From an uncultured archaeon (lineage in GTDB: Archaea; Iainarchaeota; Iainarchaeia; Iainarchaeales; 0-14-0-20-30-16), in contig CAYZSS010000002.1 in the NCBI GenBank assembly GCA_964480435.1, positions 1 through 32,000 of the forward strand: 32,000 bases of DNA, read 5' to 3'. Of this stretch, positions 8,701-26,742 are shown piece by piece. Under the pieces are notes generated by a model. The model saw only the letters and a program-made list of their open reading frames with translations. It ran no database searches and had not been told where the DNA came from. The position numbers and the translations under genes are program-made. Numbering within the stretch: the first letter of the stretch is position 1; every line of letters starts with the position of its first letter.

Positions 8701-11700
8701 CAAAAGAATAATCTCCTGCTCCATTATAACAATAATTTTCAATTACCAAATAAGATACAGGATCTTTACCATTCAAGAAAACTGCTGAAATATTCTCACT
8801 TAATTCCCCATTAGCCTCATTTGTTAGATATGCATTAAAACAATCTGGCTCTAAAGGACTATTATCAAAATCAATAGTAATATTAAAATTAACTTCCTTA
8901 ACAAGTTCATCAGATGAATTTGGCGCAAATAAATGCAGCATGGCTGAGACCCCATTTATTGGTGTTACTGACGGCAGACCAGATACTGTTGCTTCGTCAT
9001 AAACAACATTAAATTCTAAATTTTTTGCATCGCCTGACAATATTTTTGGATCGTTAAAATAATTTTGCATTTTATTTACGTCATATAATAAAGAAAATAA
9101 ATATTCTAAATCAACAGGCCCATAAAATTCAGCTTGTTTTATTGTAAAATCTAAATTAGTTTTATTTTCTATATTTAGATTTCTAGAAACTGAGCTTGGC
9201 TCTTTAGGAGCAGTAATATACAAGTCAGCAACATCAGTAGTATCAAATAATAAGTTTGTCACATCTAGTGCCACATTAGCAGACAAATAACCTGTTTTTT
9301 CTGCAACAATAGTTACTTTAGTATCTTTTGGTAAAGAACGAATATTTATAGTTATTTTTCCATCAAGATCTGAAACACCAGTATTATATTGTTGGTTTTG
9401 CAAATTAAAACCAACCCCTTCAGAAATATATACTTTTATTGATACCCCTGCAATTTTATCAACACCAGATTTTATAACTACTGGGATAGTATTAGCAATA
9501 TTTGGAGTTAATAAATGATTATCAGTTAAATAATCAATCCCATTTTCTTCATATAGCTCTAAAGGCTCTGCTGCCACTGTTTGTAAATCCACATGTTTTG
9601 TTACTGCTGCAGAATCCTCATCTTCAACAGTAGATTTAAAATAAAAATAAAGTCTTGAGCTATTTGGTTCTAATAAACTTATTTTTGATTTAAATTCTAA
9701 ACTATTATTTATTGCATAATTTGAAATTGGATACTCCTTAAGAAATAAAGGTGTTGATTCAAAAGGCGGATTTATTAACAGCTGCGAAGATGTAATTTTA
9801 TTTAGAGTTAAAAATTTATTAGTTAAATCAATAGAAAACTCTTTTAAGTCATCAAAGTTTCCTGAAAAAATATTTAGATTACTATTGAAAATAGAAAATT
9901 TATTTGTGTTTAATGCAGGCGCTTTTTCTCCTTTCATTAAATTAACTATAATATTATTATCAACACCAGGAGTAAGATTAATTTCGTTTGAGGACCCACC
10001 TAGAAAACTACTTGCAGACAAACCATTAATATAAGTATCGACACACACATCCTCTTTTGAGTTGTTAGAACCTTCACAAGATGCTCTTTTTCCCAAAAAA
10101 TTTATTATTTCGGTTGCATTTTTAAAAAACGGAACATAGCCAGAAGGAACATTTTTTGTGGTACCATCAGCCAAGTTATATTTTAAAGCATAATAAAAAT
10201 ATAATTTTTCTCCTACTTTAGGAATATCTGTTGATCTTAATTTTACTGCTACCCTTGTCACATAAGAGTTTCCATTAAAAGTTTCAGAAAACCATTTTGC
10301 ATTTGTTACGCCGGTATCATCTTGATTAGCAAAAGAAGAGTCAATTTTTGGTTCCGCATATAATTGTTCAAATTGTTCAGTTCCAAAGCCTAATACATCC
10401 CTTAAAATTAAATCACTTTCAAAAACACTCAAATCTTTTCTTCCTGCAGCCCCATAAAGAGTTACAGCTGATATTTTTTTATTTTCAGAACTAAATTCAG
10501 GGACAAAAATATCAAAGACATAATAAAAATCAATTTTATTATCTATAACAGGCAAACCCTCCGTTGTTTGAGAGTCTTTGTACATCCCAACAAACTTAAT
10601 TTCTGGATTTCCGGCCAAATATTTTTCTTTAGAATAAAGAGTAACTTCTTGATCAAAGGCATCTCCTTTTTTTAACATAATTTCCTGACTATAATAATCC
10701 AAATACCCTGCACAAGAAACTTTAAAATAAATATCATGGAATGCCTCTACTGTTAGTTCCTTACTTGTTTCTCCCCCAATAATAGACATGGAACCATAAT
10801 AACTTGAATCCATATACACATTAATATCTACATTAGTAAGAGGCTTTTTATCTTCATCCACTACGGATACTTTTAGTGTTGCTTTACCAACTTCTACAAC
10901 TATTTTTGCATCAACTTCAGGCAATTTTATTGCAGCAGGGTTATCCATAAGAGTTACTATTTCAGGAGTTTTGTAATTATCATACCAAGAATTATATGCC
11001 ACGATTTTATATGAACCTGTTGGAATTGGTGGCAGACTTACAAACCCATTAGAATCTGTTTTTTGCTGAGTGGCAAAGGTATAGTCAAGATCAGCAAATT
11101 CCCCATCATTATGTTCTACCCTTATTTTCATTTCAGGAAGTGGTTTTTCTACACCATCTTTTAATTTTACTACTTTTAAATTAATTTTCGTATTATTAAA
11201 ATAACTTAATTTTTGTAATTCTAGTTCTACTAATTTATCACCAGATTGTTGGTCATATTCTCTTTGTTCTTCAAGCGAACTATAATTCATATCATATTCC
11301 ATATAAGGAGTAACTTGGAAAAAATAATTTCCTTTTGTATAAACACCAACCTTATACTCTTCCCCAGTGTTTACATCACGAGTATCAATAACATTATTAT
11401 TAATATCTCTTACAAATAAAACTGCCTGAGCAAACCCATTATTGTCTTCTGTTTTTACTTTTATTTTAAAGTACCCCAACGGAGGCACAGCCATTGTAAC
11501 ATTAACTACTACTGGATTGCCAGCAGTAACTTCTAAATCCTGACTATAAGTTACTAAAGTGCCTGTAGGATCTGAAACATAAAGTTTGTATTTACCAACA
11601 GTAATTTCATCAAATGTGTAGCTTCCAAATTCAGTTGTTTTTCCTTGATCTACAATATCTGTAACACTCTCAAGATTTGTTATTTTTACATCAAATCCCT

Positions 11701-12478
11701 CTAATGATACTTTTTTATTATCCATTACATAAACAACAACTTTATTCTTTGGAAAATTATCCATTATTGTTGTTGCAGAAGTAGTTCCTTCTTCATCTAA
11801 AATTACTTTACACAACGCTGTATCACAAGTTTGTTTTTTTGTTACATAACCAGGAATAGTTGTTAATAAATCTAAATAAGTGCAGTTTTCAGGAACAGGC
11901 ACTTTTTGGAAACCATCAATAATAGTTAACTCTTTTTCAAAACCATCACAACTTGCTTTCACTGTTGCTTGATCCTTAATCATAGTTCCAGATTTTTCTA
12001 ATAGATAAATAGTAATATCTTTATTTTTATTATTCCCCGCCAAAGCAGCAACATCTAACTGTGGGAGATTCACTTTAATAATATTAGAATTAATTTCATA
12101 AGTTTTTGTAAAACTATATGGTTCTGTAATTTTTACTGTTGCATATTCGCCCTTACTAAGATTTACTTGCAATATCCCATCTGAAACAATCAAATCTTTA
12201 TTAAATCCTTTAGCAGTTATATTCGCAGTAAAATCGCCATTTACTAAACTATTATCAACATAAAATTGAAATGTAATTTGGGATGTTGAAAAACTTGCAA
12301 TTATTAACCAAACAATCAAACCAATTATTACAAGAGAAAGAACTGAAAAGAAAATCATAGATGGCATAACCTTGTCTATTTGGTCAGTAAGTTTATGTAT
12401 TGGGATAGTATTATTTATTTTATCCAGTAAAGCATAATACTTGTCTTCTAAACCATAATAAAATTCTTTTAATCCCAT
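5795..12478 (-). CDS. Giant (2,227 aa) type-II membrane-anchored surface protein with tandem carboxypeptidase-regulatory/PEGA-like beta-sandwich repeats; paralog of the upstream giant gene
   Basis: A 6.7-kb uninterrupted ORF in AT-rich DNA. The N-terminal 45-aa conserved module is followed by one TM helix (MPSMIFFSVLSLVIIGLIVWLIIASF). Repeats have the G.Y......GY signature (VGKYKLYVSDPTG, TGSYKIVAYNSWYD, CAGYLDYYSQ, KTGYLSANVAL). There are many N-x-S/T sequons and conserved Cys pairs. It is collinear with ORF 12575-19894. Confidence 0.9.
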   Translation of the reverse strand: MGLKEFYYGLEDKYYALLDKINNTIPIHKLTDQIDKVMPSMIFFSVLSLVIIGLIVWLIIASFSTSQITFQFYVDNSLVNGDFTANITAKGFNKDLIVSDGILQVNLSKGEYATVKITEPYSFTKTYEINSNIIKVNLPQLDVAALAGNNKNKDITIYLLEKSGTMIKDQATVKASCDGFEKELTIIDGFQKVPVPENCTYLDLLTTIPGYVTKKQTCDTALCKVILDEEGTTSATTIMDNFPKNKVVVYVMDNKKVSLEGFDVKITNLESVTDIVDQGKTTEFGSYTFDEITVGKYKLYVSDPTGTLVTYSQDLEVTAGNPVVVNVTMAVPPLGYFKIKVKTEDNNGFAQAVLFVRDINNNVIDTRDVNTGEEYKVGVYTKGNYFFQVTPYMEYDMNYSSLEEQREYDQQSGDKLVELELQKLSYFNNTKINLKVVKLKDGVEKPLPEMKIRVEHNDGEFADLDYTFATQQKTDSNGFVSLPPIPTGSYKIVAYNSWYDNYKTPEIVTLMDNPAAIKLPEVDAKIVVEVGKATLKVSVVDEDKKPLTNVDINVYMDSSYYGSMSIIGGETSKELTVEAFHDIYFKVSCAGYLDYYSQEIMLKKGDAFDQEVTLYSKEKYLAGNPEIKFVGMYKDSQTTEGLPVIDNKIDFYYVFDIFVPEFSSENKKISAVTLYGAAGRKDLSVFESDLILRDVLGFGTEQFEQLYAEPKIDSSFANQDDTGVTNAKWFSETFNGNSYVTRVAVKLRSTDIPKVGEKLYFYYALKYNLADGTTKNVPSGYVPFFKNATEIINFLGKRASCEGSNNSKEDVCVDTYINGLSASSFLGGSSNEINLTPGVDNNIIVNLMKGEKAPALNTNKFSIFNSNLNIFSGNFDDLKEFSIDLTNKFLTLNKITSSQLLINPPFESTPLFLKEYPISNYAINNSLEFKSKISLLEPNSSRLYFYFKSTVEDEDSAAVTKHVDLQTVAAEPLELYEENGIDYLTDNHLLTPNIANTIPVVIKSGVDKIAGVSIKVYISEGVGFNLQNQQYNTGVSDLDGKITINIRSLPKDTKVTIVAEKTGYLSANVALDVTNLLFDTTDVADLYITAPKEPSSVSRNLNIENKTNLDFTIKQAEFYGPVDLEYLFSLLYDVNKMQNYFNDPKILSGDAKNLEFNVVYDEATVSGLPSVTPINGVSAMLHLFAPNSSDELVKEVNFNITIDFDNSPLEPDCFNAYLTNEANGELSENISAVFLNGKDPVSYLVIENYCYNGAGDYSFEKIDLNAEMQSAPGNIPGGFTVNIDGYTDVSSTEAYKLFGIEGSKSASLIAPKERSNSPYIYKITYNKLDGYNFGNDTTIKFTLTPYYKKNIGENGLANLSSANVNVTVSEKDISECLTFGLSADSDDPENYLSADPSIIRFGYEKEGGTTKPRANTLDVVGIDDIELPKYESSYKKDTLPLTIINNCGIDLKIKLCDKFLVPDSNYCKVNGMYLSWDDIFNRDLDLKPGEENSIDFDIMRPTYFSGALVIPLSVKDDVSQEYNYIKNVKIAVQSSKGDKYFVVNPFITNNSGDIKVFINELYPDFTGWENNFNFNIVNSDPSGAAKRYQILDTVTASSDGYLDAEYYAIGQNETKGFYRNFDDSEISKLTDSQTIIKDPNWILIAGNIDQHKGGKTSNDDESTTGQYWIWSGSLPDNSNEFKLNYNFDTLGGTHGTVAGEAKEPDFFDFYGLINKMGPNISAPYFVNLATAGVEGDSGGKRTVYSYTFCPPGFEPVDLEFHRDKSGQTDSTGNNLYTDEQNGVQSFIYGGQVDLDTDIGKNDEGATTYAQLLICRKTGLELSLASFVQGYNFNSTTNLEISGSFNGADAETIKLYHTTDSSKDYFFESNLGSCPYGGNTGSEFKPTINYTWGDLVDKEFCVVKDENYAGTTACDLLQFAKVIEKQDQKEFQVKLMYDNYSESALKATENAAFFTNFDNIRILDYSGNPIGVLNPGIYNVNIVQKDNDLDVYLAYVSSYSPNHIFYYMPVDNTGSGLISGVGTAVDKQLSYAAGSEGVFSLVGDEDKSALKQYEVKNYSFKELNTTEIGSVFSGYFNDNLIYYNPMKIFKLTETIPKDENITLNCSDVPEYGSELCEILLHGWTVEKTEGEYIYAENDGIRFEIVENGEIKELKIINLTNVEKTIERIVYSNAVNLSALNVAKEITGLSIDNLESLYNQISKGNVCYKSVEGGSEYYYNPVKLLDMIK

Positions 12479-12574: not shown

Positions 12575-15500
12575 TTATTCTGCTTCTTCTGCCTCTTCTT
12601 TGTATTCATTCCAAAATACATTCATCCATTGGCTTGTTGAATTAATACACAATTTTTCACCAGAGATATCAGTAAACACATCTTGTAAAGTTTTTCCTGT
12701 GCCTTGTTTTGATGTTGGATTACCATTAGACAACATATTTATTGGTGATTTATATGATACAGTCCCAGCATTTTCTTTTGTGTATATGTATGCGTACAGT
12801 TCTATATCTTTGGTATCAGAAGTTACTGATTCTTGATTGTATTTTATTCCAGATTGATTTCCACAAACATTTGGTTCAGAACTTTTTGGATAATTATCTG
12901 CCAATTTTTGGCCTGTGAAATCCAATAAGTTAGCGTCCTTTGCAAAGAAAGGTAATACTGAATCAGGGCTATCATAAGTTTGAGAATCAACTAAAACAGA
13001 GTAACAAAACTTAGTATCTCCTGTAGGATTTACTTTCACAGTTGAATCAATTTTTGTTTGCATTAAAGGAACAAAGTTAACTGATACAAAACCATCTGCA
13101 ATTTTATCAATACTTAAAACACTTCCTCTGTCTATTTTATTTGCTTTTACAAAGCTATAATCATTACTTGTGTCCAAAGTATTTATTGGATTAGATGTAG
13201 AGTCTGTTGTTGCTTTTTTCAGATAGTCACCCATTTTAAACAAGTCAATTGTGTTTCCTGAAAAATCAACACCATAACCTTGTCTATCAACTACATAGTT
13301 TGTTATTCCCACAGGGCCATCCAAAGGCATATAATATAGAATATTATCTTGCACAGGAGTTTCTGCTTTTTCCAATAAAATGTATATATCTTTTATTTCT
13401 AAATCCATATTATCATAGGTAATTATTGTTCTAACAAGATACTTTCCAGGCCCACTCAAAGTTTTTGTGCCATCTACATTTAAAATTTTTAGTTTTCCTG
13501 ATTTCAACAATGGTAAATAAGTTGAAATTATATGATCTGGGCACTCGAAAAAGTCATCATTACAGGCATCAACAAAATCATTAATAAAATCTTCTCCAAA
13601 TCCATCTTTCATTAAATCTGCTTGGAAATAAATTTTATCTTTTGCAGCATTTAATTTATCATTAGTTTCTTTTGGAATTTGTCCATTCACATCTAAGAAA
13701 TAATTTGAAATTTGCATCATACCATTATTTATTTCTGTAGATAATGGAATATTCATCGCAGTTTGTGGTAATGGAGGATAATACTTAAACTTTACTTTTA
13801 CTAATAAAGTTTTTGTTTTTGCAGCATTCACATTTACCACATTCAAAATAAACTCTTTTTCAATATTATTTAAATCACTATATTTTTTAACATCAGTTAT
13901 CAAAGTAAACAGATAGATATTTGGATTTGTTTCTGATAAGTTTACCAGATCTTGTATATCAATTCCAGTACCCGAAACAGAAATTTTGCTAATATTGGAA
14001 TCCTGTGTTTTTGTTACTATAAAATACACTTCTTTGGTATCAGGATTCTGTTGCACACGCATATTAGTTACCCCTATTTGTTCTGCTACTGCATCAAGAT
14101 AATTAATATCCACATCTACACCTTCAGGAATAGGTGGAAGCATAGGCACAGACAACGCCCCAAGAGTTTTTATATCTTTATTAAATGTATCAATTCTGTT
14201 AAACATATTCATCAATAATTGTGTAGAATCGCAGTAATTATCTTCTCCACAAAAGGCCAATTTTTTATATGGGCCTGCGCCATCTTTCCAACTCCAATTA
14301 TATTCGATTTTTGGAGCTGCATTTTCCCCAGTAAAACCTAAAACATCTCCCTTAGAGTTTGTACAAGGGGCACCTAATGGAATACTTTTTTGCTCTTCTT
14401 GTAGAGGATTATATAGAGCTACCCTATAATTATATTTTGTTCCTTCTGTATCAAGAGAATTTTCCATATTAAAACTAATATCAAAGTAATTATTTCCAGG
14501 CAATAATGACTCTGTTGGTTTTGTGAAAATTACCCTTGCTAATCCAGTTCCAGGAAGCCCATAAGGGATACCTTTGAATTGTTCTGAAAGCCAAGTTTTA
14601 TTATCCATTTTACATAAAACATAAACATTGGACTTTAACTCAAAACCATCCAAAAATCCAGCGCCACTACAATCAGGTTTAAATTCAACTGAGTTTCCTG
14701 TTATTTCATATGGTTTTTCTGGCCAACCACATATCTGTTTTTTAGTATCATGTATAATTATCCCTGGTTCGTATACTTCGTATCCTGGTCCACAACTAAC
14801 TTTAAACCATAAATCCTTTTTGTGGTCACCATCAGTAAAACCTACAGACCCGGCAACTTGTTTATTTACATGATATAATCTAAAATATGCCTCACCAGTT
14901 AAATCCATAGATTTGATTATGTCCTCAGACAACACTTTTTCTACCCCAAGAGTATCAGTTAATTTACCTGTGTCCAAGTCTATTCTATATGGTGGTATTG
15001 TTACATCCCCATTATTATAAATAAAATATTCAGTGCTTTGTTCAAAATCAGATATTGCCGCAACTATAACCATAGTTGCTGCTGCTGCTGCAGCAATACC
15101 ACAGATAATCCATCCCGCAACAGGAATTGGAGCAGTTGCTGCCGCAGTAATTAACAAAGCCCCTGTTGCTGACATATAAGTTGTTGCAGCAATAGTAGGC
15201 AAAGTAAGAGCAATTGCTGCAAAGGTAATAGCACCAGCTGTTGTAGTTGCCGCACTAGCAATAAAAACAGCTGCTCTTGCATCCGCATCGTTATCTACTT
15301 TATCTCCAGAATAAGTGCCTAAATTACTACTAAAATTCAACCTATCTAGAGAATCCCAACAGCCAGACTCCTCCCCCTCACAAGTGTTAATCTTGCTTAA
15401 CACTTCTAAATCCATTAAACTGTAAAGTCGCACATCAGTGTTAAATAAATACATTACATCAGAATTACCATCTGTATTTACTTGTAAAAAAGGGCTATAA

Positions 15501-18500
15501 CTAAACAACCCATAACCAGATGTTGTTTGAACATTTGTTTTCAAATCATAAATCTTTTTGAAACCAAATTGGTCTGGAGTTCTTAACCAAATATCCAAAG
15601 CATATGCACCTGGAATTGAAGGTCTATATATTTCTATTTCTTTACTTTCTCCACCAACTATTTTTACACCATCAGTTAACTTATCATCTGAAAATCTAAG
15701 CCTTGCTTCTGTGTTTTCATTTCCACAGCCAGCACTAAAATTTGGAGGATATTCATTATCTTTACAAACTCTTACAAATAAAGTTGAACCAACACACTCA
15801 TTCTTTATTTCTATTTCTTTTGATGGTCCATTAATTTTTTGCCCTATATTTTCAAAAGAGGATAAATAAGCTGTGCTATCAAATACTTCAAAATCAAGCT
15901 TTTCTATTTTTTCTCCTTCTGTGTCATAAACCCCAATACAATCTGCCAAATTCATTGCAGAAACATTTATTTCTATTTTATTGGATTCTATTTTTGCAGG
16001 GCCTGATTCAGTATTAACATAACCAATCAATTTTATTCCAATTTTTTGTGTTCCTTTTGTTGTTCTAGGAGTAATACCTAAACCGGCAATAATTGGATTA
16101 AAATCAGCCTTCCAATTTTCAAAAACCAAAGTTGGGAAGCCTATATCAAGAGTTGCAGACATTTTATCAGGAATACTTATTGTATATCCGGCAACACCAT
16201 AACTACCATCTTCTAAAGACAATTGCACAAATGCTTTATCTAAAGTAGCAAGTTTGACATTTGCCACATCAAGCAGACAGGAATTTACAATTTCCACTTG
16301 GGCACTAATTTCTTTTTCCAAATAGAAATCTGTTTGATTGTCAACCATAGAAATACTTAAACATTCACTTGCATTTTCCGGATAAGAATCTAATCTAAAT
16401 GTTATTGTAAATGGTATCTCCAAAACAATATCACCAGGGCTAGTAGATAAATGTAATTTTATTTTACCACTAATCTTATCAACAGGGATTGTGTTAGTTG
16501 AACTTTCTTTTGCAATTACTTTAAAGAAATATTGCAAATTTGTTTCATTTGGTTCCATTCCTTCTTCCATACCATAAATTACTTTTCCATTAAATTCTGA
16601 ATTAAAATAAGATTCCATTGCTTCCCAATTCAGCAAATATTTAGAATCTTGGGAATATTTATCAAAAATAATTTCAGCATTTTCCAAAATTAAATCTTGC
16701 GCGCTTGCATTAGTTATTTCTAAGTCCGCAGTTTTCACTTTTTCTTTTGGATATGCCAAATCAATTTCTAATTTTTCAGGATTAAAAGTAACAATTTCAG
16801 CTAATACTTTCAGGTCCGGAGTTAAATCCTTATGCTTATAACTTTTATAACCAGGTTTATATGCCAAAATTTGGATAAAAGTTCCTTTTTCTAAAGGAGG
16901 AAGTTTGCATAAAATCTTTCCTTCATAATCAGTTACCATATTAACACAGGAATCAGATTGCACAGCATAATAACCATCATCAGACTGCCCTTTTTTGAAA
17001 ATGCTAACTACTGCATCTTTTATTATGGACCCAGTTTCATCATAAACATAAACTTTTAGGTCTTGTGCTTTAGTTGGAACTAAAACAGTGTTTGGGAAAA
17101 ACTTAATTGCTAAAGAATGTGCAGCATCAGGAATAAAAGAATAATTAAATGCAGGTTCCCCTCTTACAGGCACTTGTTTATCTGTATCAATTATCCAAAA
17201 ATTCAAATAATTTGCTTTATCAGTTGTGGGAATAAAATCAAAATTTCCATTTATTGTTTTATTAGCAAAGAAATTTGTAAATTCATACTTGTCAACTAAC
17301 ATTGATTTTGCTGAAGACCAGTTTTGAGATTGAGTATTTGGACCGGATAAAGTTATGTTTGTAAAATTAAAATAATTATAATTATCAAGATCATTTTCAA
17401 CAACTAAAAAACTTTGGCCTGGGGCATTTGCAGTGTGTGCTTTCAGATATCCATTTTTTATTTCTCCATCTGTTGCAGTAATACCATTCATCAAAGTAAA
17501 TTCCGTTTTGTATCCTTTTCCAATAACTAAAGAATATTTTTGTTCATTCTTATTTACATTTCCAAGATTCTCTAGATACAATTGACTTTCTAAATCAAGC
17601 ACAGATGTTTTTGCACAAAACATATCAGTACAATCTAGTGAACTGCCTAAAAAGTATTGCTTTTCTTCATGTGATTCTGACACAGAACTATTATCTAAAA
17701 ATAATTCCCAGCTTACATTTAAAGAAGAATATAATGATACAGAGGAGTCATTTCTTACTTTTATTTTTATATAAATTCTGTAAGTTCCTTTTTCAACATC
17801 ACTACCCTCAACCCCTTTATTCCATTTTGCAGTTAAAACTTTTCCTTCATCTTCAGTAGGATTGTTTTTTTCAAAATCCTCATACATTGAATCTATCTGG
17901 GAAGATGCATAATCCCCAATTATAAACAACGGATCTTGCTCTACATCTGTGGAATTAGTGCCTGTGATATATTGGAATTCCATTTCACTTACATCTTGAT
18001 ACAAATGAATATCATATCCCAAATAAACTTCTTTTCCAATTTCAAAGGATGTTTTTTCGCCACCCATAGAATCAAAAATACCTAAAAATGTTACTCTTGC
18101 TTTTTCTTCATCATCTTTAAATTTTTGTGGTTCTAAATTTACATTTCCGTCCCAAATAATTTGTGGGGTTAATACTCTTGATTCACTAAAGAATGGTAAA
18201 TAACCCTCACTTTTAACTTCAAAAAACTTTTTTGTCCCTGCTTTCAAAGAAAAAGTCATTTTTCCTTTGTTATCCGAAAGTTTTGAACCCAATTTTTCTA
18301 TATTTGTGCTTTTATTAAAAAAAGAAAATTCTGCAAAAGGAATAGGATAGCCTAAGTCATCTAAAACAGAAATATCAAAACTTCCATTTCCTAAATATAA
18401 AAATACTTTTACTTCTTCTTGTGGTATTTCAGTATTACTTGTTTCAGTTACTTGGACTTGATCACTCATTCCTTCAGAGTATCCTTTATAAGCCCTAAAA

Positions 18501-19885
18501 AGATATGCCCCATCTTGAGAGATTGTTACATGTGTATAACCATTAGTATCTGTTTCTGGGATAACATAGCTAAATATTTCAAACCCAGTAAATAAATCTT
18601 GAACAAATACATTTGCTCCTTCAATTGGTTTTTCATCTTCATCAAGCAATCTTATGTTAAATTTTTTAGAATTAAAAGAAGTTATTTCTTTTACGTCAAC
18701 AACAATTTCTTGTTGACCTGCAACAATGTTTATTTCTTTATTTGCAATAACACCATAGTTTCCATCTTTAGGGTTTATATCCACTAAATATTTACCGTAG
18801 GCATATATTGGCAGAATTGCAGCATTATTTTGGCTATCTCCAGAAAATAAAATTTCATTAGTCAAAGTTTTTAAAACAACAGAAAAATTAATATCTTCAT
18901 CTAATTTTAAAACAAAGTTCCCTAAAGTATTTTTTTCTACAATTATTTTTGATGATACTCCTGGTTCAGTTAAAGTAATTGTTTGGTTAGTAGTCAAATA
19001 GCCAGTAACAGTAACATAAACTTTGTAAATTCCTACAGGAAGAGCCTTTGATTTGTAAGACCCACTCACTGAGTAATCAATTTCAACAGGAGTGATTAAA
19101 TCTTTTACATTATATACAGTTACTGTTCCATCCTTTGACGCATCTACAGAATCAACAATGGTTAATGAAATAAAAGCAGTAGGAATTTCGCTTGTGCCTC
19201 CCAAATTAGCTTGAGTTAAGCTACTAAATGTAACAATACAAGAGGTAGAATCACAACTTTTTTGTGCTTGAGAATACCCTTCCGCACTAGCAACAATATT
19301 CAAAGTGCCACAATCATCAGGAACCTCTACTTCAACATATGCATTAGTAGTTGTTTTTGATTTTTCAGAGTCTGGCAAAGTTACATTTTCACATTCAAAA
19401 TATGCGCTTGCAGAATTTACATTATCGTATCCTGACTTAAAAAATACCTCAACAGGTATTATTTTTTTCTTAGCAGTTAGAATAACTTTGATTTCATCTG
19501 CAAAAGAAAAGGTATCATCTATGCCATACTTAGCAGTATCCACTTTTATCCTATATGAATCACTTTTAGGCACAGCCCCTGAGAAAGTTCCATCTTTTGC
19601 TTCAAAAGAGTAATTATTATCTCCAACAAATAACGAAAATTGCAAATTATCTGCAATTTTTATTGGACCATTAAAGAATGAAATTGTTACATTTGTGTAT
19701 GATGGAATTAAAGCCCAAACAACTAAACCGATAATTATCAAAAAAAGAATAAAGAAAAATATCATTGACGGCATAATTTTATCTATTTTGTCTACAATTG
19801 CATGTGCAGGAAAAATAGTGTCTAAACTATCAATCATTTTGTAGTATTTATCTTCCAAACCAAAATAGAAATCCTTAAAGCCCAT
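12575..19885 (-). CDS. Giant (about 2,436 aa) type-II membrane-anchored surface protein with beta-sandwich repeats and an internal Ala/Thr-rich hydrophobic insertion; paralog of the downstream giant gene
   Basis: A 7.3-kb uninterrupted ORF. The ORF-track start at 19894 is GTG. The ATG at 19885 gives MGFKDFYFGLEDKYY, which aligns with the paralog's MGLKEFYYGLEDKYY, so I prefer it. One TM helix follows the N-terminal module. CarboxypepD_reg-like repeats are present (e.g. LLDEDEKPIEGANVFVQD...TDTNGYTHVTISQDGAYLFRAYKGY). The tail is acidic (EYKEEAEEAE). Confidence 0.9.
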   Translation of the reverse strand: MGFKDFYFGLEDKYYKMIDSLDTIFPAHAIVDKIDKIMPSMIFFFILFLIIIGLVVWALIPSYTNVTISFFNGPIKIADNLQFSLFVGDNNYSFEAKDGTFSGAVPKSDSYRIKVDTAKYGIDDTFSFADEIKVILTAKKKIIPVEVFFKSGYDNVNSASAYFECENVTLPDSEKSKTTTNAYVEVEVPDDCGTLNIVASAEGYSQAQKSCDSTSCIVTFSSLTQANLGGTSEIPTAFISLTIVDSVDASKDGTVTVYNVKDLITPVEIDYSVSGSYKSKALPVGIYKVYVTVTGYLTTNQTITLTEPGVSSKIIVEKNTLGNFVLKLDEDINFSVVLKTLTNEILFSGDSQNNAAILPIYAYGKYLVDINPKDGNYGVIANKEINIVAGQQEIVVDVKEITSFNSKKFNIRLLDEDEKPIEGANVFVQDLFTGFEIFSYVIPETDTNGYTHVTISQDGAYLFRAYKGYSEGMSDQVQVTETSNTEIPQEEVKVFLYLGNGSFDISVLDDLGYPIPFAEFSFFNKSTNIEKLGSKLSDNKGKMTFSLKAGTKKFFEVKSEGYLPFFSESRVLTPQIIWDGNVNLEPQKFKDDEEKARVTFLGIFDSMGGEKTSFEIGKEVYLGYDIHLYQDVSEMEFQYITGTNSTDVEQDPLFIIGDYASSQIDSMYEDFEKNNPTEDEGKVLTAKWNKGVEGSDVEKGTYRIYIKIKVRNDSSVSLYSSLNVSWELFLDNSSVSESHEEKQYFLGSSLDCTDMFCAKTSVLDLESQLYLENLGNVNKNEQKYSLVIGKGYKTEFTLMNGITATDGEIKNGYLKAHTANAPGQSFLVVENDLDNYNYFNFTNITLSGPNTQSQNWSSAKSMLVDKYEFTNFFANKTINGNFDFIPTTDKANYLNFWIIDTDKQVPVRGEPAFNYSFIPDAAHSLAIKFFPNTVLVPTKAQDLKVYVYDETGSIIKDAVVSIFKKGQSDDGYYAVQSDSCVNMVTDYEGKILCKLPPLEKGTFIQILAYKPGYKSYKHKDLTPDLKVLAEIVTFNPEKLEIDLAYPKEKVKTADLEITNASAQDLILENAEIIFDKYSQDSKYLLNWEAMESYFNSEFNGKVIYGMEEGMEPNETNLQYFFKVIAKESSTNTIPVDKISGKIKLHLSTSPGDIVLEIPFTITFRLDSYPENASECLSISMVDNQTDFYLEKEISAQVEIVNSCLLDVANVKLATLDKAFVQLSLEDGSYGVAGYTISIPDKMSATLDIGFPTLVFENWKADFNPIIAGLGITPRTTKGTQKIGIKLIGYVNTESGPAKIESNKIEINVSAMNLADCIGVYDTEGEKIEKLDFEVFDSTAYLSSFENIGQKINGPSKEIEIKNECVGSTLFVRVCKDNEYPPNFSAGCGNENTEARLRFSDDKLTDGVKIVGGESKEIEIYRPSIPGAYALDIWLRTPDQFGFKKIYDLKTNVQTTSGYGLFSYSPFLQVNTDGNSDVMYLFNTDVRLYSLMDLEVLSKINTCEGEESGCWDSLDRLNFSSNLGTYSGDKVDNDADARAAVFIASAATTTAGAITFAAIALTLPTIAATTYMSATGALLITAAATAPIPVAGWIICGIAAAAAATMVIVAAISDFEQSTEYFIYNNGDVTIPPYRIDLDTGKLTDTLGVEKVLSEDIIKSMDLTGEAYFRLYHVNKQVAGSVGFTDGDHKKDLWFKVSCGPGYEVYEPGIIIHDTKKQICGWPEKPYEITGNSVEFKPDCSGAGFLDGFELKSNVYVLCKMDNKTWLSEQFKGIPYGLPGTGLARVIFTKPTESLLPGNNYFDISFNMENSLDTEGTKYNYRVALYNPLQEEQKSIPLGAPCTNSKGDVLGFTGENAAPKIEYNWSWKDGAGPYKKLAFCGEDNYCDSTQLLMNMFNRIDTFNKDIKTLGALSVPMLPPIPEGVDVDINYLDAVAEQIGVTNMRVQQNPDTKEVYFIVTKTQDSNISKISVSGTGIDIQDLVNLSETNPNIYLFTLITDVKKYSDLNNIEKEFILNVVNVNAAKTKTLLVKVKFKYYPPLPQTAMNIPLSTEINNGMMQISNYFLDVNGQIPKETNDKLNAAKDKIYFQADLMKDGFGEDFINDFVDACNDDFFECPDHIISTYLPLLKSGKLKILNVDGTKTLSGPGKYLVRTIITYDNMDLEIKDIYILLEKAETPVQDNILYYMPLDGPVGITNYVVDRQGYGVDFSGNTIDLFKMGDYLKKATTDSTSNPINTLDTSNDYSFVKANKIDRGSVLSIDKIADGFVSVNFVPLMQTKIDSTVKVNPTGDTKFCYSVLVDSQTYDSPDSVLPFFAKDANLLDFTGQKLADNYPKSSEPNVCGNQSGIKYNQESVTSDTKDIELYAYIYTKENAGTVSYKSPINMLSNGNPTSKQGTGKTLQDVFTDISGEKLCINSTSQWMNVFWNEYKEEAEEAE

Positions 19886-19910
19886 AAAAATCACGGTACA
19901 AGATTAAAAC

Positions 19911-20460: not shown

Positions 20461-20520
20461 ATAGGAAAAAGACCAAGAAATAATAAAAATGTATTACAAA
20501 ATTAGAAGCCTTCAAACTTA

Positions 20521-20686
20521 GGTTTTGGCAAACCTAACATTTTTTCAAAAGGCTGGACGCAGGGAGAGGGATTCGAACTGCCCTTTTAGGAAAAGGGTAA
20601 GTTGCCCAAAAATGAATCCCTCTACATGAGGTTTTGGCAAACCTAGCATTTTTTCAAAAGGCTGGACGCAGGGAGAGGGATTCGAA
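20521..20686 (-). repeat. 57-nt direct repeat (20521-20577 and 20630-20686, 1 mismatch) covering the tRNA-Ser 3' end plus its trailer
   Basis: gttttggcaaaccta[a/g]cattttttcaaaaggctggacgcagggagagggattcgaac occurs twice, 109 nt apart. The single difference is at 20536 versus 20645. Confidence 0.9.
20557..20576 (-). pseudogene. Isolated copy of the tRNA-Ser 3' fragment (T-loop to discriminator, positions about 54-73) preceded by a leader-like hairpin
   Basis: On the minus strand, TTCGAATCCCTCTCCCTGCG is identical to the 3' end of the tRNA-Ser at 20666-20749. It sits inside a 57-nt direct repeat. No 5' tRNA body lies upstream of it. Confidence 0.5.
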
Positions 20687-20749
20687 CCCTCGCCTCCTTT
20701 CAGAGACTGGCTTTCCAGACCAGCGCGTTGAACCGCTTCGCTACCCCTG
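20666..20749 (-). tRNA. tRNA-Ser (anticodon GGA), no intron, CCA not encoded
   Basis: Hand-folded cloverleaf. Acceptor GCAGGGG/TCCCTGC. 3-bp D stem GCG/CGC with a large loop. Anticodon stem CTGGT/GCCAG with loop CT-GGA-AA. Long variable arm CTCT-GAAA-GGAG. T arm GAGGG-TTCGAAT-CCCTC. Discriminator G. Confidence 0.85.
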
Positions 20750-20971
20750 CCTGCCCTTTTTACAAAAAGGGTGAGTGGCCCAAAAAAGGCCATATCCGCA
20801 AATCAAAGATTTGGGATATTCCTTATTAAAGATATTATTCCTGGGCAAATTAATAAAAATACATCCATAAAAACAATATAAAAATCGTTAAGGAGTTTTA
20901 TACCTCCAAATTCTTTCTTTTTAGCAAACCAGAAAAGGGCCTTTATGGCCCATGTTTTCTTTACAGACTGT

Positions 20972-20996
20972 AGCTTTCTTTTTTGAAAAGAAAGCT
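20972..20996. terminator. Palindromic hairpin with T/A runs immediately downstream of tRNA-Gly
   Basis: AGCTTTCTTTTTTGAAAAGAAAGCT lies 7 nt beyond the tRNA-Gly 3' end on the minus strand. Confidence 0.4.
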
Positions 20997-21155: not shown

Positions 21156-22145
21156 ATGGTTCCAAAACCCAAGAGAGTAATACCTAAAGCAGGACAAACA
21201 CAATTACCAGGCGTAGGTGCAAAATTTCTTGGGAGACACCATGAACAAAGGGTAATGAGAGCAATATATACTAAAACAAAAGATCCTAAAGCACCGATAG
21301 ACCGAAGAATACACCCAAAAAACAGCCCAATGGGTAGAGCACAACTACTTGATTTTATAATAGAAAACCACGACCTTCTAAAAGATAGAGCAATAGGCGA
21401 ATTTTATGAAGATATAAGAGGCATGACCCAAACCGAAATAAAATCACGAAAAGAAGAGTTAGATTCTTTTTTAAGGGTTTTAGATGAAACATATAAAAAA
21501 ATAAGAAAAGGAAATCTTGAAACTTTAGTAAATTACGCCGAAAGAGATGAAAAAACGCTATTATTAACTGCACAAGGATTTATTACAAGAATAAGGCAGT
21601 ATGTAACTAATCCACACAGAGTATTTGGCTATTTTGTAATTGATATGAATAATCTAAAAAGAATTAATGATGGGATATCACATACACTTGGAGACAGTTA
21701 TCTTAGGACAATGGGTGAAATTGGATTAGAATTACAAAAAATATATGCTCAGTCAAATATTAAGTTCACTTTTGCAAGAACTGGCGGAGATGAATTTGAA
21801 ATTTTGTTAAGCATGCCCAGAGATAAAGGATATAATTATGAAGAAACTGCAAAAAACTTTATTAGACAAATTAGAGCAATAGGAAAAAAAAGATGGGATG
21901 AAAAAAGAACAAGAGTAGCAACCGAATTAAGAATTGCAGAAGAGAATATACCTGAAATATCTTTCGCAGTTGGCTCTTTCATTGATTTAAAAACTTGCCC
22001 AATAACAATAACAGACCCAGGAAGTTATGAAAGAATTACTCCAGAACAAAGAGATAATATTGACCTATACATTGAAGACATAAGAGATAAAGCAGATAGA
22101 CACATGCAAGAAAATAAAGCAGAAATGAAAGAAAGAAGGAGATAA
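21156..22145 (+). CDS. GGDEF-domain protein (putative diguanylate or other dinucleotide cyclase) with a basic N-terminal extension
   Basis: 329 aa. The motifs appear in order: LLLTAQGFITRI (cf. D-LTGL-NR), FVIDMNNLKRINDGISHTLGDSYL (cf. DxDxFKxxND..GHxxGD), an intact GGDEF at nt 21783-21797, and the C-terminal ADRHMQENK (cf. ADxAMYxAK). There is no RxxD inhibitory site five residues upstream of GGDEF. Confidence 0.8.
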   Translation: MVPKPKRVIPKAGQTQLPGVGAKFLGRHHEQRVMRAIYTKTKDPKAPIDRRIHPKNSPMGRAQLLDFIIENHDLLKDRAIGEFYEDIRGMTQTEIKSRKEELDSFLRVLDETYKKIRKGNLETLVNYAERDEKTLLLTAQGFITRIRQYVTNPHRVFGYFVIDMNNLKRINDGISHTLGDSYLRTMGEIGLELQKIYAQSNIKFTFARTGGDEFEILLSMPRDKGYNYEETAKNFIRQIRAIGKKRWDEKRTRVATELRIAEENIPEISFAVGSFIDLKTCPITITDPGSYERITPEQRDNIDLYIEDIRDKADRHMQENKAEMKERRR

Positions 22146-23428: not shown

Positions 23429-23875
23429 ATGTTACAAACTCTTAGCAAAAAAGACATAAAAGAACTTAATGAAAAAATCAAAGTGTACAATTTAGAAATC
23501 AGTACAAAAGAAAGGGTACAAAGAATAAACAATATAATTATACAAAATAATGTGCCACTATTTTTTGAATTAGATAACAAAATTATCCCAACACTAAAAA
23601 ATAATAGTTTAACATTTCCAAAAGTATACATTGACCGAGGAGCAATACTGTTCATAGTAAAAGGAGCAGACCTAATGAAACCAGGTATTGTTTCAAATGA
23701 AGAATTTAAGAAAAATGACCTCGTTTTCATAGCTGACTCAGAACATAAAAAGAACCTTGCTCTAGGGATCGCCCTATTTGATTCAGCTGAGTTAAAAGAG
23801 ATTGAAAAAGGAAAGGTAGTAAAGAATATTCACTTTGTAGGAGATGCAATCTGGAATTTTGCCCTAAATAAGTAA
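23429..23875 (+). CDS. PUA-domain RNA-binding protein
   Basis: 148 aa. The C-terminal half has a PUA signature: VYIDRGAILFIVKGADLMKPGIV...NDLVFIADSEHKKNLALGIAL....GKVVKNIHFVGD. Confidence 0.7.
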   Translation: MLQTLSKKDIKELNEKIKVYNLEISTKERVQRINNIIIQNNVPLFFELDNKIIPTLKNNSLTFPKVYIDRGAILFIVKGADLMKPGIVSNEEFKKNDLVFIADSEHKKNLALGIALFDSAELKEIEKGKVVKNIHFVGDAIWNFALNK

Positions 23876-23880
23876 CAAGG

Positions 23881-23890
23881 TTTTATTAAA
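23881..23890 (+). promoter_or_regulatory. TATA-box-like element upstream of tRNA-Trp
   Basis: TTTTATTAAA is centred about 33 nt upstream of the mature tRNA 5' end (23919), consistent with a short leader. Confidence 0.3.
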
Positions 23891-23955
23891 GTATCCTTAC
23901 TTTTTTATTATATCTTATGGGGTTATAGTGTAGCGGCTAGCACTTCAGGCTCCAG

Positions 23956-24340
23956 ACGCAACCTTTTCTTTCTTTGAAAAGAAAGAAAATCTTAGCTTCA
24001 CCAAAAGAAAGAAACATAACCTTTTGGGGAGTGAGTGTGATGGCGGAGTTAATTTGTAAAAATTAGCGATGATGATAATTGCAGGTAATAAACTTTATGT
24101 TTAGTCAATTAAGGGTTGCCAAGCTGAACACAGCGAAGGCTGACCCAATTTTGGCAGACGGTGCCTTTCAAGAAGCCAATTTTGTGAAAACAAAATTGCT
24201 TCAGGACCTAAAGAACTCTTTTGGAAGAAGCAAATTCCCTTAGGGAATTTCTTCAGCCACAGAAATACTTTTGCTTTACACAAAAGTAATTTCTTTGCAA
24301 GAGCAAAAGGTTCTTTTTGTTATTAAAAGGCTCGGGAGAC
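23956..24340 (+). other. Archaeal BHB-type tRNA intron, about 385 nt, with a structured core
   Basis: The central 4-bp helix is CTCC (23950-23953) paired with GGAG (24335-24338). The 3-nt bulges are A-G-A (23954-23956) and A-C-A (24339-24341). The outer helix is CG..CCTTTT (23957-23967) paired with AAAAGG..CG (24325-24334). The boundary is ambiguous by +/-1 nt because an A flanks both junctions. Confidence 0.7.
23964..24015 (+). repeat. Intron-internal copy of the tRNA-Trp 3' trailer (the partner copy is at 24379-24437)
   Basis: TTTTCTTTCTTTGAAAAGAAAGAAAA-TCTTAGC-TTCACCAAAAGAAAGAAAC matches TTCTTTTTCTTTCTTTGGAAAAGAAAGGAAAAA-GCATAAG-TTCACCAAAAAGAAAGAAAC. Confidence 0.8.
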
Positions 24341-24460
24341 ACCTGCGGACCAGGGTTCGAGTCCCTGTAACCCCACTATTCTTTTTCTTTCTTTGGAAAA
24401 GAAAGGAAAAAGCATAAGTTCACCAAAAAGAAAGAAACTAGTGAATAAAAAAACAGCAGA

Positions 24461-24470
24461 TTTATTAAAT
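24461..24470 (+). promoter_or_regulatory. TATA-box-like element upstream of the CYTH gene (suggests a leaderless transcript)
   Basis: TTTATTAAAT is centred about 25 nt upstream of the ATG at 24490. Confidence 0.3.
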
Positions 24471-24489
24471 CAAAAACTTATTATATACA

Positions 24490-25020
24490 ATGATGGAAGA
24501 AATTGAAATAAAAATTCTTGAAATTAACAAAGACGAAGTCATAAAAAAACTAATTAAATTAGGTGCAAAAAAAGTATTCGATGGCCCAATGAATTCAATT
24601 TATTTAGATAGAGATAAAGAACTAAGAGATACAAAAAAAACTTTAAGAATCCGTCAAAAAGGAGACAAATGCATTGTTACTTTTAAAATAAAAAAAGAAG
24701 ACAGAGATGTAAAAATTGCAGACGAATATGAAACAGAAGTTAAAGACTTTGAAGAAGCAAAACTAATTTTTAAAAATTTAGGATTCGACGAATATAAAAC
24801 AGATTTCAGAAACAGAGTTTCCTATAAATTAAAAAATTCATTAGTTGAAATTGACACTTTCCTTAAAGCCCATAATTACGTACCAACATTTTTAGAAATT
24901 GAATCTCCAAATAAAGAAGAAATAAAAGAAGTTGCTAAACTATTGGACTTTTCAGAAAATCAATTAAAACCATGGTCTGGAAAAGAAGTTTTAGAATATT
25001 ATAAAAAAAAGAAAAAATAA
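24490..25020 (+). CDS. CYTH-domain protein (triphosphate tunnel metalloenzyme / CyaB-like class IV adenylate cyclase family)
   Basis: 176 aa. It has the N-terminal EIEIK signature (ExExK) and alternating charged beta-strand patterns (TLRIRQKGDKCIVTFK, VEIDTF, FLEIE) typical of the CYTH tunnel fold. Confidence 0.75.
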   Translation: MMEEIEIKILEINKDEVIKKLIKLGAKKVFDGPMNSIYLDRDKELRDTKKTLRIRQKGDKCIVTFKIKKEDRDVKIADEYETEVKDFEEAKLIFKNLGFDEYKTDFRNRVSYKLKNSLVEIDTFLKAHNYVPTFLEIESPNKEEIKEVAKLLDFSENQLKPWSGKEVLEYYKKKKK

Positions 25021-25034
25021 AAAAAAGAATTAAA

Positions 25035-25118
25035 CCACGAAGTGGCTTTTTCGCGAACCTTTTGGAAAAAGGCTCCCACGAAGTGGCTTTTTCCCAAGGC
25101 TTTTTTGAAAAAAGCCTT
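25035..25118. terminator. Cluster of hairpins with oligo-T/oligo-A runs between convergent genes (candidate bidirectional terminators)
   Basis: CCACGAAGTGGCTTTTTC occurs twice (25035-25052 and 25076-25093). Palindromes are CCTTTTGGAAAAAGG (25058-25072) and AAGGCTTTTTTGAAAAAAGCCTT (25096-25118); the latter overlaps the thermosome stop codon. Confidence 0.5.
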
Positions 25119-26742
25119 AATCCATGTCGCCCATTCCAGGAGGCATGCCTCTTGGGCCTTTTGATCTTCCGCTTCCTGCAATTATATCATCAATTCTTAG
25201 AATCATTTGTGATACTTCTGACCCTAAGTTTATTGCTTGGATTTTTATGTTTGTTGGTTCAATTACATTAAGTTTTTCCATGTCAGCAATTGTGCTATTC
25301 AGAACATCAACACCGCAGGCAACTTCTCCTTTTTTATGTCTATTTTTCAAGGCAACTAAAATATCTAAAGGATTCATACCAGCAGATTCTGCCAAAGTTC
25401 TAGGAATTATTTCCAAAGCACTTGCAAACGCATCTATTGCCAATTGTTCTCTTCCGCCAATTTCTTTTGCATATTCTCTTAATCTAATTGCAACTTCCAT
25501 TTCGCAGGATCCACCACCAGCAACATATTTACCTGATTTTAATGAAGAAGTTACTGCGCCTAAAGCATCAACGATTGCTCTTTCTGCTTCATCCACAACG
25601 TGATCTGTTCCGCCTCTAACAAATATTGTTACTGCTTTTGCATCTTTACAGCCTTCAATAAATACCATTTCTTCTCCAGATATTTTTTTTTCTTGAACAA
25701 TATCTGCATTCCCTAAATAGGTTTTATTTATTTCTTTTATTCTTGATGCAATTTTTGCACCTGTTGCTTTTGATAGTTTATCAATATCAGATTTTTTTAC
25801 TCTTCTTATTGCCATAATTCCTGCTTCAGATAAAAAGTGTTGTGCTAAATCATCAATTCCTTTTTGGCAAATTACTACATTTGCTCCAGATGCTTTTATT
25901 TTTTCTATCATATCAGAAATCATTCTTTCTTCTTGTTCTAAGAATTGTTCTAATTGTTCAGGACTACTAATTTGCACTTTAGTATCTGTTTCTGGACTTT
26001 TTATTTCCAGAGCAACATCCAATAAAAGTATTTTTGCGTTACTTATTTTTTTTGGCATGCTGTTGCTTACAATTTCTTTATCAATTACTATTCCTTTAAT
26101 CAATTCGCTGTCCTCTAAACTTCCACCAGATTTTTTTTCTATTTTTATGTAGTCGTTATCATAAATAACTTTATTGTCTTCAATAACAATAATTTGGGAA
26201 ACTGCATCAATTACTAACTTAGCAAATTTTTGACAAGATTCTGCTGCCTTTCCAGTCATTGATGTTATTGCAATGTTATATAATTTCTTTTCATCTTTGT
26301 GGTCTACTTTGTATGAAATGTCATTGTAATATTCAATTGCTTTTGTTGTAGCCAATCTGTAACCATTAATTATACTTGAAGGGTGTATTCCATTATCCAA
26401 AAGTTTTTCTGCTTCTCCTAATAACTCTCCAGCAACCACTACAGCTGTTGTTGTTCCATCCCCTATTTCAGAGTCTTGGGTTTTTGCAATATCAACCATC
26501 ATTTTTCCAACAGGGTGCTCAATAGCTATTTCCTTTAGAATTGTTGCCCCATCATTTGAGATTGTAACATCTCCCATTTCATCAACAATCATCTTGTCCA
26601 TTCCTTTAGGACCCAATGTTGACCTTACTGCGTTGGCCACTGCTCTAGCAACCAAAATATTTACTCTTTGAGCATCTTTTCCTCTAATTCTCTTTGATCC
26701 TTCTTCTAAAAAGGCATTCTGTTGATTCTGCATTTCTGCCAT
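25117..26742 (-). CDS. ths: Thermosome subunit (group II chaperonin, Cpn60/TCP-1 family)
   Basis: 541 aa. It carries [23 protein letters not shown], the GDGTTT ATP-binding motif and VAGGG, and the C-terminal tail is [13 protein letters not shown]. Confidence 0.95.

Follow-up and report, generated by a model that had tools for sequence, protein, structure and literature searches.

An oversized intron in a predicted archaeal tRNA-Trp(CCA) gene and its relation to the shorter tRNA-Trp introns of related lineages

How can two halves of a tRNA-Trp(CCA) gene that lie about 385 nt apart give one tRNA, and what is the sequence between them? The question was raised by a locus in a 32-kb stretch of archaeal DNA (the window; an AT-rich sequence of 31% GC that includes a thermosome gene at 25117-26742), which was the part of the genome analysed. 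An earlier note on this DNA had read the halves as exons separated by an exceptionally long intron with a bulge-helix-bulge (BHB) splice motif, and had suggested that the intron carries a functional RNA or is the footprint of an insertion. The locus is likely to be a functional, single-locus tRNA-Trp(CCA) gene of a DPANN-type archaeon, interrupted by an enlarged BHB intron that is homologous to those of its relatives.

With default settings, ARAGORN and the Rfam tRNA model reported only tRNA-Ser(GGA) and tRNA-Gly(UCC) in the window and missed tRNA-Trp. When introns were allowed (ARAGORN -i), a check suggested by the earlier note, tRNA-Trp(CCA) was called at 23919..24376 with a 385-nt intron inserted at 37/38, which confirms the spacing given there. 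The gene is laid out as follows:

23919-23955, + strand: 5' exon of tRNA-Trp, tRNA positions 1-37, with the anticodon CCA at 23952-23954 (ARAGORN -i)
23956-24340, + strand: intron of 385 nt at the canonical position 37/38 (ARAGORN -i)
24341-24375, + strand: 3' exon, positions 38-73 with discriminator A; CCA is not encoded (ARAGORN)
23883-23892, + strand: putative TATA-like promoter box TTTATTAAAG, 27-36 nt before the tRNA 5' end

The joined exons (23919-23955 + 24341-24375) comprise 72 nt and were called by ARAGORN as an intron-less tRNA-Trp cloverleaf, the product that the earlier note had predicted for a cut at 37/38. Read directly, the predicted spliced product is a complete tRNA that keeps U8, A14, G18G19, the TTCGA T-loop and discriminator A73.

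The intron was searched for coding content. No sense-strand open reading frame (ORF) exceeds 54 aa, the longer ones begin with TTG, and no significant Pfam match was obtained. Two ORFs overlie it, of 54 aa (24079-24243, +) and 60 aa (24101-24283, -). No homing endonuclease ORF (LAGLIDADG or other) was found, the longest ORFs being these two without Pfam match. Rfam searches over 23850-24480, at the gathering threshold and at E-values up to 10, returned noise only on both strands, namely microRNA and small RNA (sRNA) hairpin look-alikes and a partial tRNA match of 14.9 bits. Neither EndA nor RtcB was identified in the 32-kb window.

Related loci were then compared, as the earlier note had proposed. 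Near-identical strains were present in several metagenomes, and two of their contigs (L001 and L003) carry an identical intron. In more distant relatives the synteny of nucleoside deaminase, PUA-domain gene and tRNA-Trp is kept; identity to the window is ~71-72% for the DNA of their flanking genes and 66-72% for their deaminases. The syntenic relatives belong to four lineages:

L011, a metagenome-assembled genome named 'Candidatus ainarchaeum sp.' (Iainarchaeota, DPANN): intron of 88 nt
L026, a Logan contig: intron of 90 nt
L009, a JGI contig with the gene inverted: intron of 105 nt
L012/L027, JGI and ENA contigs: intron of 213 nt

The exons are almost identical across all five lineages. The 5' exon is the same or almost the same in L009, L011, L012/L027 and L026, the 3' exon is identical to that of L027 at 34/35 nt, and the acceptor stem shows a compensatory change among relatives from T6-A67 to C6-G67 (GGGGTTA/TAACCCC vs GGGGTCA/TGACCCC). 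The box TTTATTAAG is kept at the matching spot 5' of tRNA-Trp in L027 and L026, where the window has TTTATTAAAG, the putative promoter of the gene. Judged from this comparison, the locus is the regular tRNA-Trp gene of its lineage and the 385-nt intron is homologous to the ~90-105-nt tRNA-Trp introns of the relatives. Long introns appear to persist over substantial divergence, because the 213-nt intron of L027 shares both the ends and the domains of the window intron.

Several observations were made on these loci in passing. In L009 (1885-2061) tRNA-Trp and the PUA gene are on opposite strands, pointing to a local inversion. ARAGORN -i called the tRNA-Trp of L026 (reverse complement 1041-1204) as tRNA-Arg(CCT) with a shifted intron, and placed the intron at 35/36 in L009 and L011. 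More distant PUA homologues showed no synteny. A scan of contig collections with the 5'-exon pattern gave one match in genomes, two in metagenomes and none in viral contigs, from which it is read that the lineage is sparsely sampled.

The splice junction was examined by direct reading and by a BHB scan, which agree on two strands:

23946-23967, + strand: 5' strand of the junction, with anticodon stem, CTCC, bulge AGA (cut after 23955), CG and CCTTTT
24325-24345, + strand: 3' strand of the junction, with AAAAGG, CT, CG, GGAG, bulge ACA (cut after 24340) and CCTG

The central 4-bp helix is formed by CTCC at 23950-23953 and GGAG at 24335-24338. It is bounded by 3-nt bulges on opposite strands (AGA at 23954-23956, ACA at 24339-24341), each with a predicted cut after the second nucleotide. 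The intron-side helix comprises CG/CG, a small internal loop and then CCTTTT (23962-23967) paired with AAAAGG (24325-24330), and the exon-side helix is the anticodon stem, with 4 bp and a U27.C43 mismatch. This geometry reads as the earlier note had described it. The mismatch is a lineage trait and not a sign of decay, since it also occurs in L011 and L027. Across 24316-24340, 20/21 nt match L027. The BHB of the window is the most canonical among the five lineages, those of the short-intron relatives being more relaxed.

A loose BHB scan of 600 nt gave 46 matches in the real sequence vs ~19 per mononucleotide-shuffled sequence. Because such a scan gives many chance matches in AT-rich DNA, the motif is not significant by itself; its significance comes from the exact placement at 37/38, the perfect tRNA produced and the conservation in relatives. 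A nested or second BHB within the intron was also looked for, and the loose-scan matches all fell in low-complexity T/A runs and were uninformative. Splicing is predicted to give an exon-exon junction of GGCTCCAG joined to ACCTGCGG, and a circular intron would carry the chiastic junction of CGGGAGAC joined to ACGCAACC.

What the intron contains was approached through the parts shared with relatives. Its conserved core consists of three elements:

24044-24075, + strand: kink-turn (K-turn) motif with CGGA (24044-24047), an 8-bp hairpin with GUAA loop (24048-24067), the bulge GAU (24068-24070) and GAUGA (24071-24075)
24081-24086, + strand: GCAGGT, a candidate guide element able to pair with the 3' strand of the anticodon stem (tRNA positions 38-43)
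24089-24103, + strand: hairpin h0, kept in position and different in sequence in each of the five lineages

An architecture scan found one arrangement common to the five lineages: CGGA, a GNRA hairpin, a 3-nt bulge, GA(U/C)GA, 4-5 nt, an invariant GCAGG, exactly 4 nt and a hairpin. The K-turn motif occurs once in the window (both strands scanned; 0.01 expected per shuffled window). The same scan also found it in L009, L011 and L012, and L027 and L026 carry the GACGA form. Pairing survives the changes in its stem, which has U.G/U-A in the window and C-G/U.G in L011 and is replaced by another stem of 6 bp in L009 and L026, and the hairpin folds at -6.1 kcal/mol on the sense strand vs -0.1 kcal/mol on the antisense strand. 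The core matches L027 at 52/56 aligned positions. Its near-invariance across five lineages, despite the ~71-72% identity of flanking DNA, argues for the functional cargo proposed in the earlier note, and the K-turn may bind L7Ae.

GCAGG(U) pairs with tRNA positions 39-43 in the lineages and 38-43 in the window, where the pairing comprises 6 Watson-Crick bp, or 8 bp with G.U (shuffle p ~0.05 per sequence). Counting back from h0, the fifth nucleotide is in every lineage the G opposite C39; this agrees with the known target at position 39, but h0 itself is not a D box. Box C/D guides follow an N+5 rule, and Cm34 is a known target of tRNA-Trp introns (PMC7714728, PMC7994747). In L009 the 12 nt upstream of CGGA hold an 8-bp complement to tRNA positions 31-38, in which C34 is paired with the nucleotide five positions before CGGA (shuffle p 0.002); by eye, L026 has the same C34 guide with one G.U. 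The other lineages have six extra nucleotides before CGGA (UGAUGG in the window, UGAAGA in L012/L027, UGAAGG in L011), and their complementarity is no better than chance. On this reading, the C34 guide is intact in L009 and L026 and eroded in the window.

The polarity of the K-turn, with the D-type box (CGGA) 5', the C-type box (GAUGA) 3' and closure by a stem, is that of a C'/D' arrangement. As a complete box C/D sRNA the core fails, having a single K-turn of D'/C' polarity, and an internal C'/D' K-turn is present. The core is similar to the internal half (C'/D') of the box C/D methylation guide in tRNA-Trp introns, from which it probably descended. A second C-type box, 'GGAUGAU', seen near the 3' end of the short introns was rejected, being the 3' strand of h0 with a sequence that differs per lineage. 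A loose scan for free-standing C/D sRNAs in the window gave one match, inside a coding region, and none was convincing. A gapped core pattern gave at least 120 matches in viral contigs, all by chance; none had K-turn, GCAGG and Trp exon together.

Three further parts account for the extra length of the window intron, and one of them has a second copy behind the tRNA:

23964-24015, + strand: U element, a perfect T-rich/A-rich hairpin TTTTCTTTCTTT-GA-AAAGAAAGAAAA, a 13-nt spacer and a second A-rich arm (repeat analysis)
24104-24155, + strand: domain H-a, a 52-nt, three-helix hairpin with a conserved UUAA/AAUU internal loop, common to the L027 intron
24167-24319, + strand: 153-nt block, with near-perfect hairpins at 24172-24202, 24227-24254 and 24261-24294 within a closing stem 24211-24216/24310-24315
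24383-24438, + strand: another copy of the U element, immediately following the tRNA, a direct repeat of 23964-24015 that is 77-100% identical piecewise, with a T5 run

Domain H-a folds alike in the window and L027. All 17/17 pairs are kept between them, of which 4 are changed on both sides and 3 are changed to G.U; in slid controls none was changed on both sides and pairing was 21-47%. Folding gave -20.6 kcal/mol on the sense strand vs -15.9 kcal/mol on the antisense strand, and the G.U pairs form on the sense strand only. The 22-nt 3' strand and the sequence following it (GACCCAATTTTGGCAGACGGTG) are invariant between window and L027. Inspection by eye showed that an H/ACA or K-turn reading does not fit. 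We infer from the two sequences a selected RNA structure that was gained before the split from the L027 lineage, and these compensatory changes and strand-specific G.U pairs point, like the core, towards functional cargo.

The L012/L027 intron contains the U element as well, L009 only its hairpin, and L011 and L026 neither part. The element folds equally well on both strands. Elements of the same type lie 3' of tRNA-Gly in the window (20972-20996) and in L011 (5250-5315), and at 25096-25118 between the convergent CYTH and thermosome genes. The copy at 24383-24438 is probably the terminator of the tRNA-Trp gene. More generally, gene ends in this genome are marked by perfect T-rich/A-rich hairpins whose centres are of the GAAA type. 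They make up 4/9 of the perfect hairpins of at least 9 bp in 32 kb, counting the intron copy and leaving aside the imperfect 24383-24438, which suggests that U-type elements are bidirectional terminators of the genome.

The duplicated U element also precedes the CYTH / class IV adenylate cyclase-like gene of the window (24490-25020). This gene is absent at that position in L026 and L027, where the thermosome gene directly follows tRNA-Trp. A synteny search through it (five homologues checked) gave none with tRNA-Trp upstream, which fits the lack of CYTH at this place in L026 and L027. The closest CYTH homologues lie in unrelated contexts, one of them beside an integrase and an Hjc gene (L019). 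In L024 the called gene just upstream of a CYTH homologue (3-275) looks by eye like the C-terminal end of RtcB, the tRNA ligase.

The 153-nt block is absent from the otherwise collinear L027 intron, where the pairwise alignment places its site between GGTGyCT and TTATTAAAAGG. Its three near-perfect hairpins have 12-13 bp. The block is strand-symmetric (-50.2 vs -52.2 kcal/mol), with 1 G.U in 56 pairs. This is the part of the intron that fits the insertion footprint suggested in the earlier note, as the core and H-a fit the RNA cargo, so that both of its suggestions are supported, each for different parts. The block most likely consists of young, neutral palindromes formed at the DNA level, by template switching or through a small mobile element. 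A deletion in L027 would be as parsimonious as a gain in the window lineage. Palindromes may be tolerated here because splicing makes them harmless. Five independent metagenome contigs from near-identical strains (L002, L004, L005, L007 and L008) end or start in the palindrome-rich part of the intron, window 24205-24253; the intron therefore also fragments assemblies.

Taken in order, the proposed mechanism is as follows. The tRNA-Trp gene would be transcribed as one precursor, whose exon-intron junctions would fold into the canonical helix-bulge-helix-bulge-helix. The archaeal splicing endonuclease is expected to cut after 23955 and after 24340, and an RNA ligase to join the exons into the 72-nt tRNA, the 385-nt intron probably being circularised. 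The element complementary to positions 38-43 would have been retained in the window and the C34 guide would have decayed. Growth to 385 nt would have proceeded stepwise from an ordinary intron of ~90 nt, by additions in a part that tolerates them through splicing: the terminator-like T/A hairpin (U element); H-a, acquired before the L027 split and held by structural selection; and the 153-nt palindrome cluster, which either arose in the window lineage or disappeared from L027 and is most likely a neutral expansion.

Several points weigh against this account. Folding, which the earlier note had named as a check on the BHB, showed a fold constrained to cloverleaf and BHB to be feasible at -141.8 kcal/mol, but one lying 12.7 kcal/mol above the unconstrained minimum, in which the 5' exon and anticodon loop pair with an intron-internal GGGGAG. 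We treat this predicted competition as a caveat and do not count it as a rejection of the BHB; guide-like pairing that competes with the BHB is a feature of the pre-tRNA-Trp of other archaea. A terminator-like T-rich element stands 8 nt into the intron, with T4 in the window, T6 in L027 and T5 in L009. Upstream of CGGA the window has no significant tRNA complementarity, the best Watson-Crick match being 4 nt, equal to shuffles. None of the five lineages has a terminal pair of C box (RUGAUGA) and D box (CUGA), or a D box following GCAGG, and function as a C/D ribonucleoprotein (RNP) is putative. The covariation of H-a concerns two sequences, and its observed score was reached by 35/500 shuffles. 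The genome is covered over 32 kb, and a second tRNA-Trp gene may lie elsewhere.

The T-rich element raises the alternative of a cis-encoded split tRNA, in which the 5' half ends at the U element, the 3' half is transcribed from the AT box TTTTTGTTATTAAAAGG (24314-24330), and the two are trans-spliced through BHB pairing as in Nanoarchaeum equitans. The element is of the same kind as those 3' of complete tRNA genes and between convergent genes, the T6 and T5 runs of L027 and L009 fall within it, and the TATA-like TTATTAAAAGG at the 3' end of the intron resembles the upstream box TTTATTAAAG. We nevertheless regard this as very improbable: the same hairpin occurs in the 105-nt intron of L009, where the conserved core leaves no room for a second promoter; a start ~25 nt past the internal AT box would drop the AAAAGG strand and leave ~6 bp to hold the halves; and T4-T6 runs are common in a genome of 31% GC. 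Known split tRNAs have GC-rich helices of 12-14 bp. Still less credence is given to a disrupted pseudogene, killed by an insertion and replaced by another copy. DPANN genomes usually have one gene per tRNA, the window has intact exons, which four relatives share in essentially the same form with compensatory changes, the BHB is the most canonical of the five, and the shared ends and domains of the 213-nt intron in L027 show long introns persisting over substantial divergence. A pseudogene would find support in the 32-kb view of the genome, in the rejection of the locus by default tRNA finders and in an intron far longer than any listed in a 2014 review (PMC4090602).

Least probable of all is that the extra sequence codes for something independent of the tRNA, either a small protein or an antisense small RNA under a separate promoter. 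Although the 54-aa and 60-aa ORFs exist and the extra region folds well on the minus strand (z = -5.4), both ORFs have a TTG start and no Pfam match, run across hairpins and are mostly missing in L027. No Rfam family rose above noise on either strand, and the conserved intron parts fold better on the sense strand. A further alternative concerns the origin of the 153-nt block and is compatible with the enlarged-intron account: a mobile element resembling a miniature inverted-repeat transposable element may have landed in the intron. Its perfect, strand-symmetric palindromes, its clean presence or absence relative to L027 with a junction ambiguity of 2 nt (TT), and the weak inverted similarity of its ends (score 9, which 4.4% of shuffles reach, p ~0.04) would suit such an element. 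Yet the terminal repeats barely exceed chance, no clear target-site duplication was seen, and no other copy was found in the remaining ~31.5 kb of the window or in the fetched loci, near-identical strains aside. Local palindrome formation by template switching gives the same features, and a deletion in L027 accounts equally well for the difference. A mobile origin is accordingly rated unlikely, if less so than the readings above.

The enlarged intron was compared with known systems. Archaeal tRNA introns range over 11-129 nt, those of tRNA-Trp having a median of 65 nt owing to a nested C/D sRNA (2014 review, PMC4090602). The intron is 103-105 nt long in Haloferax and 65 nt in Sulfolobus, and both persist as stable circles (PMC7714728, PMC3326292). 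Guides of the C/D type for C34 and U39 reside in tRNA-Trp introns, which form stable circles (PMC7714728, PMC3326292, PMC4090602). The earlier note's statement that C/D guides reside in much shorter tRNA-Trp introns agrees with this literature (PMC4090602). The window intron exceeds the longest archaeal tRNA intron of that review (129 nt) about threefold, and literature searches, including full text, found no description of a comparable tRNA intron.

The tRNA-Trp(CCA) intron of Haloferax volcanii (103-105 nt) and Pyrococcus (sR50), which guides Cm34 and Um39 and is circular, was compared through secondary descriptions. It shares with the window intron the same tRNA, the 37/38 position and the BHB motif. 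Both also have a K-turn of C'/D' polarity, in which the D-type box precedes the C-type box, and, beyond the latter, a stretch that can pair with the 3' strand of the anticodon stem. A C34 guide upstream of the D-type box that obeys the N+5 rule is shared by L009 and L026 only. Unlike the Haloferax and Pyrococcus introns, the window intron is 385 nt long, has one K-turn and no terminal C/D pair, carries the D' box CGGA instead of CUGA and closes its hairpin with GNRA instead of a short loop. Its position-39 element is followed by a hairpin and not by a D box, the C34 guide is lost, and ~260 nt are extra (U element, H-a and palindrome block). With the split tRNAs of Nanoarchaeum equitans and Caldivirga it has in common halves that can be joined by a BHB at 37/38 and a terminator-like element after the 5' half. 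It differs from them in that the halves lie on one strand, 385 nt apart and in the right order, with a conserved intron between them, and that the short-intron orthologues are arranged in ordinary cis. Like the rRNA introns of Desulfurococcus and Pyrobaculum, which carry a homing-endonuclease ORF, it would be excised through a BHB and is several hundred nt long; unlike them it has a tRNA host and neither an ORF nor an endonuclease remnant.

Other observations in the window concern sequences away from the locus. Downstream of tRNA-Ser(GGA) (20667-20750), at 20518-20690 on the minus strand, the last ~20 nt of the tRNA and ~38 nt of trailer are directly repeated ~112 nt downstream, and the leader hairpin (ACTyACCCTTTTnnTAAAAGGGCAG) recurs in front of the repeat. 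The arrangement suggests an att-site-like remnant or a tandem duplication of part of the gene, i.e. a tRNA 3'-fragment pseudogene. The 329-aa product of 21156-22145 (+) has a GGDEF (diguanylate cyclase) domain by precomputed Pfam matches; the domain is uncommon in archaea. Two giant ORFs lie next to each other on the minus strand, at 5795-12478 (2227 aa) and 12575-19894 (2439 aa).

The finding is real, and it is an oversized form of a known tRNA-Trp intron type and no new kind. Its size would surprise specialists, and the case is useful for annotation. The five orthologues (88, 90, 105, 213 and 385 nt) form a series of guide-RNA intron growth, in which the K-turn core was frozen, one guide decayed, a new structured domain was fixed and palindromic DNA accumulated. 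Such growth bears on a gap in complete genomes. In a 2026 preprint on 208 complete Nanobdellota genomes, tRNA-Trp is reported as undetected in 40 (30/123 Woesearchaeales, 9/54 Pacearchaeales and 1/31 Maxwellarchaeales), and the authors could not choose among gene loss, detection failure and split genes (bioRxiv 10.64898/2026.05.13.725050). Oversized introns offer a concrete, testable explanation, and the window shows one way in which detection fails. Speculatively, and with a probability well below even, the spliced-out 385-nt intron may persist as a stable circular K-turn RNP in which H-a has a function of its own beyond tRNA-Trp methylation. It would then be a new intron-hosted non-coding RNA in DPANN, and runaway growth of tRNA-Trp introns would explain the 'missing' tRNA-Trp of many complete DPANN genomes (bioRxiv 10.64898/2026.05.13.725050).

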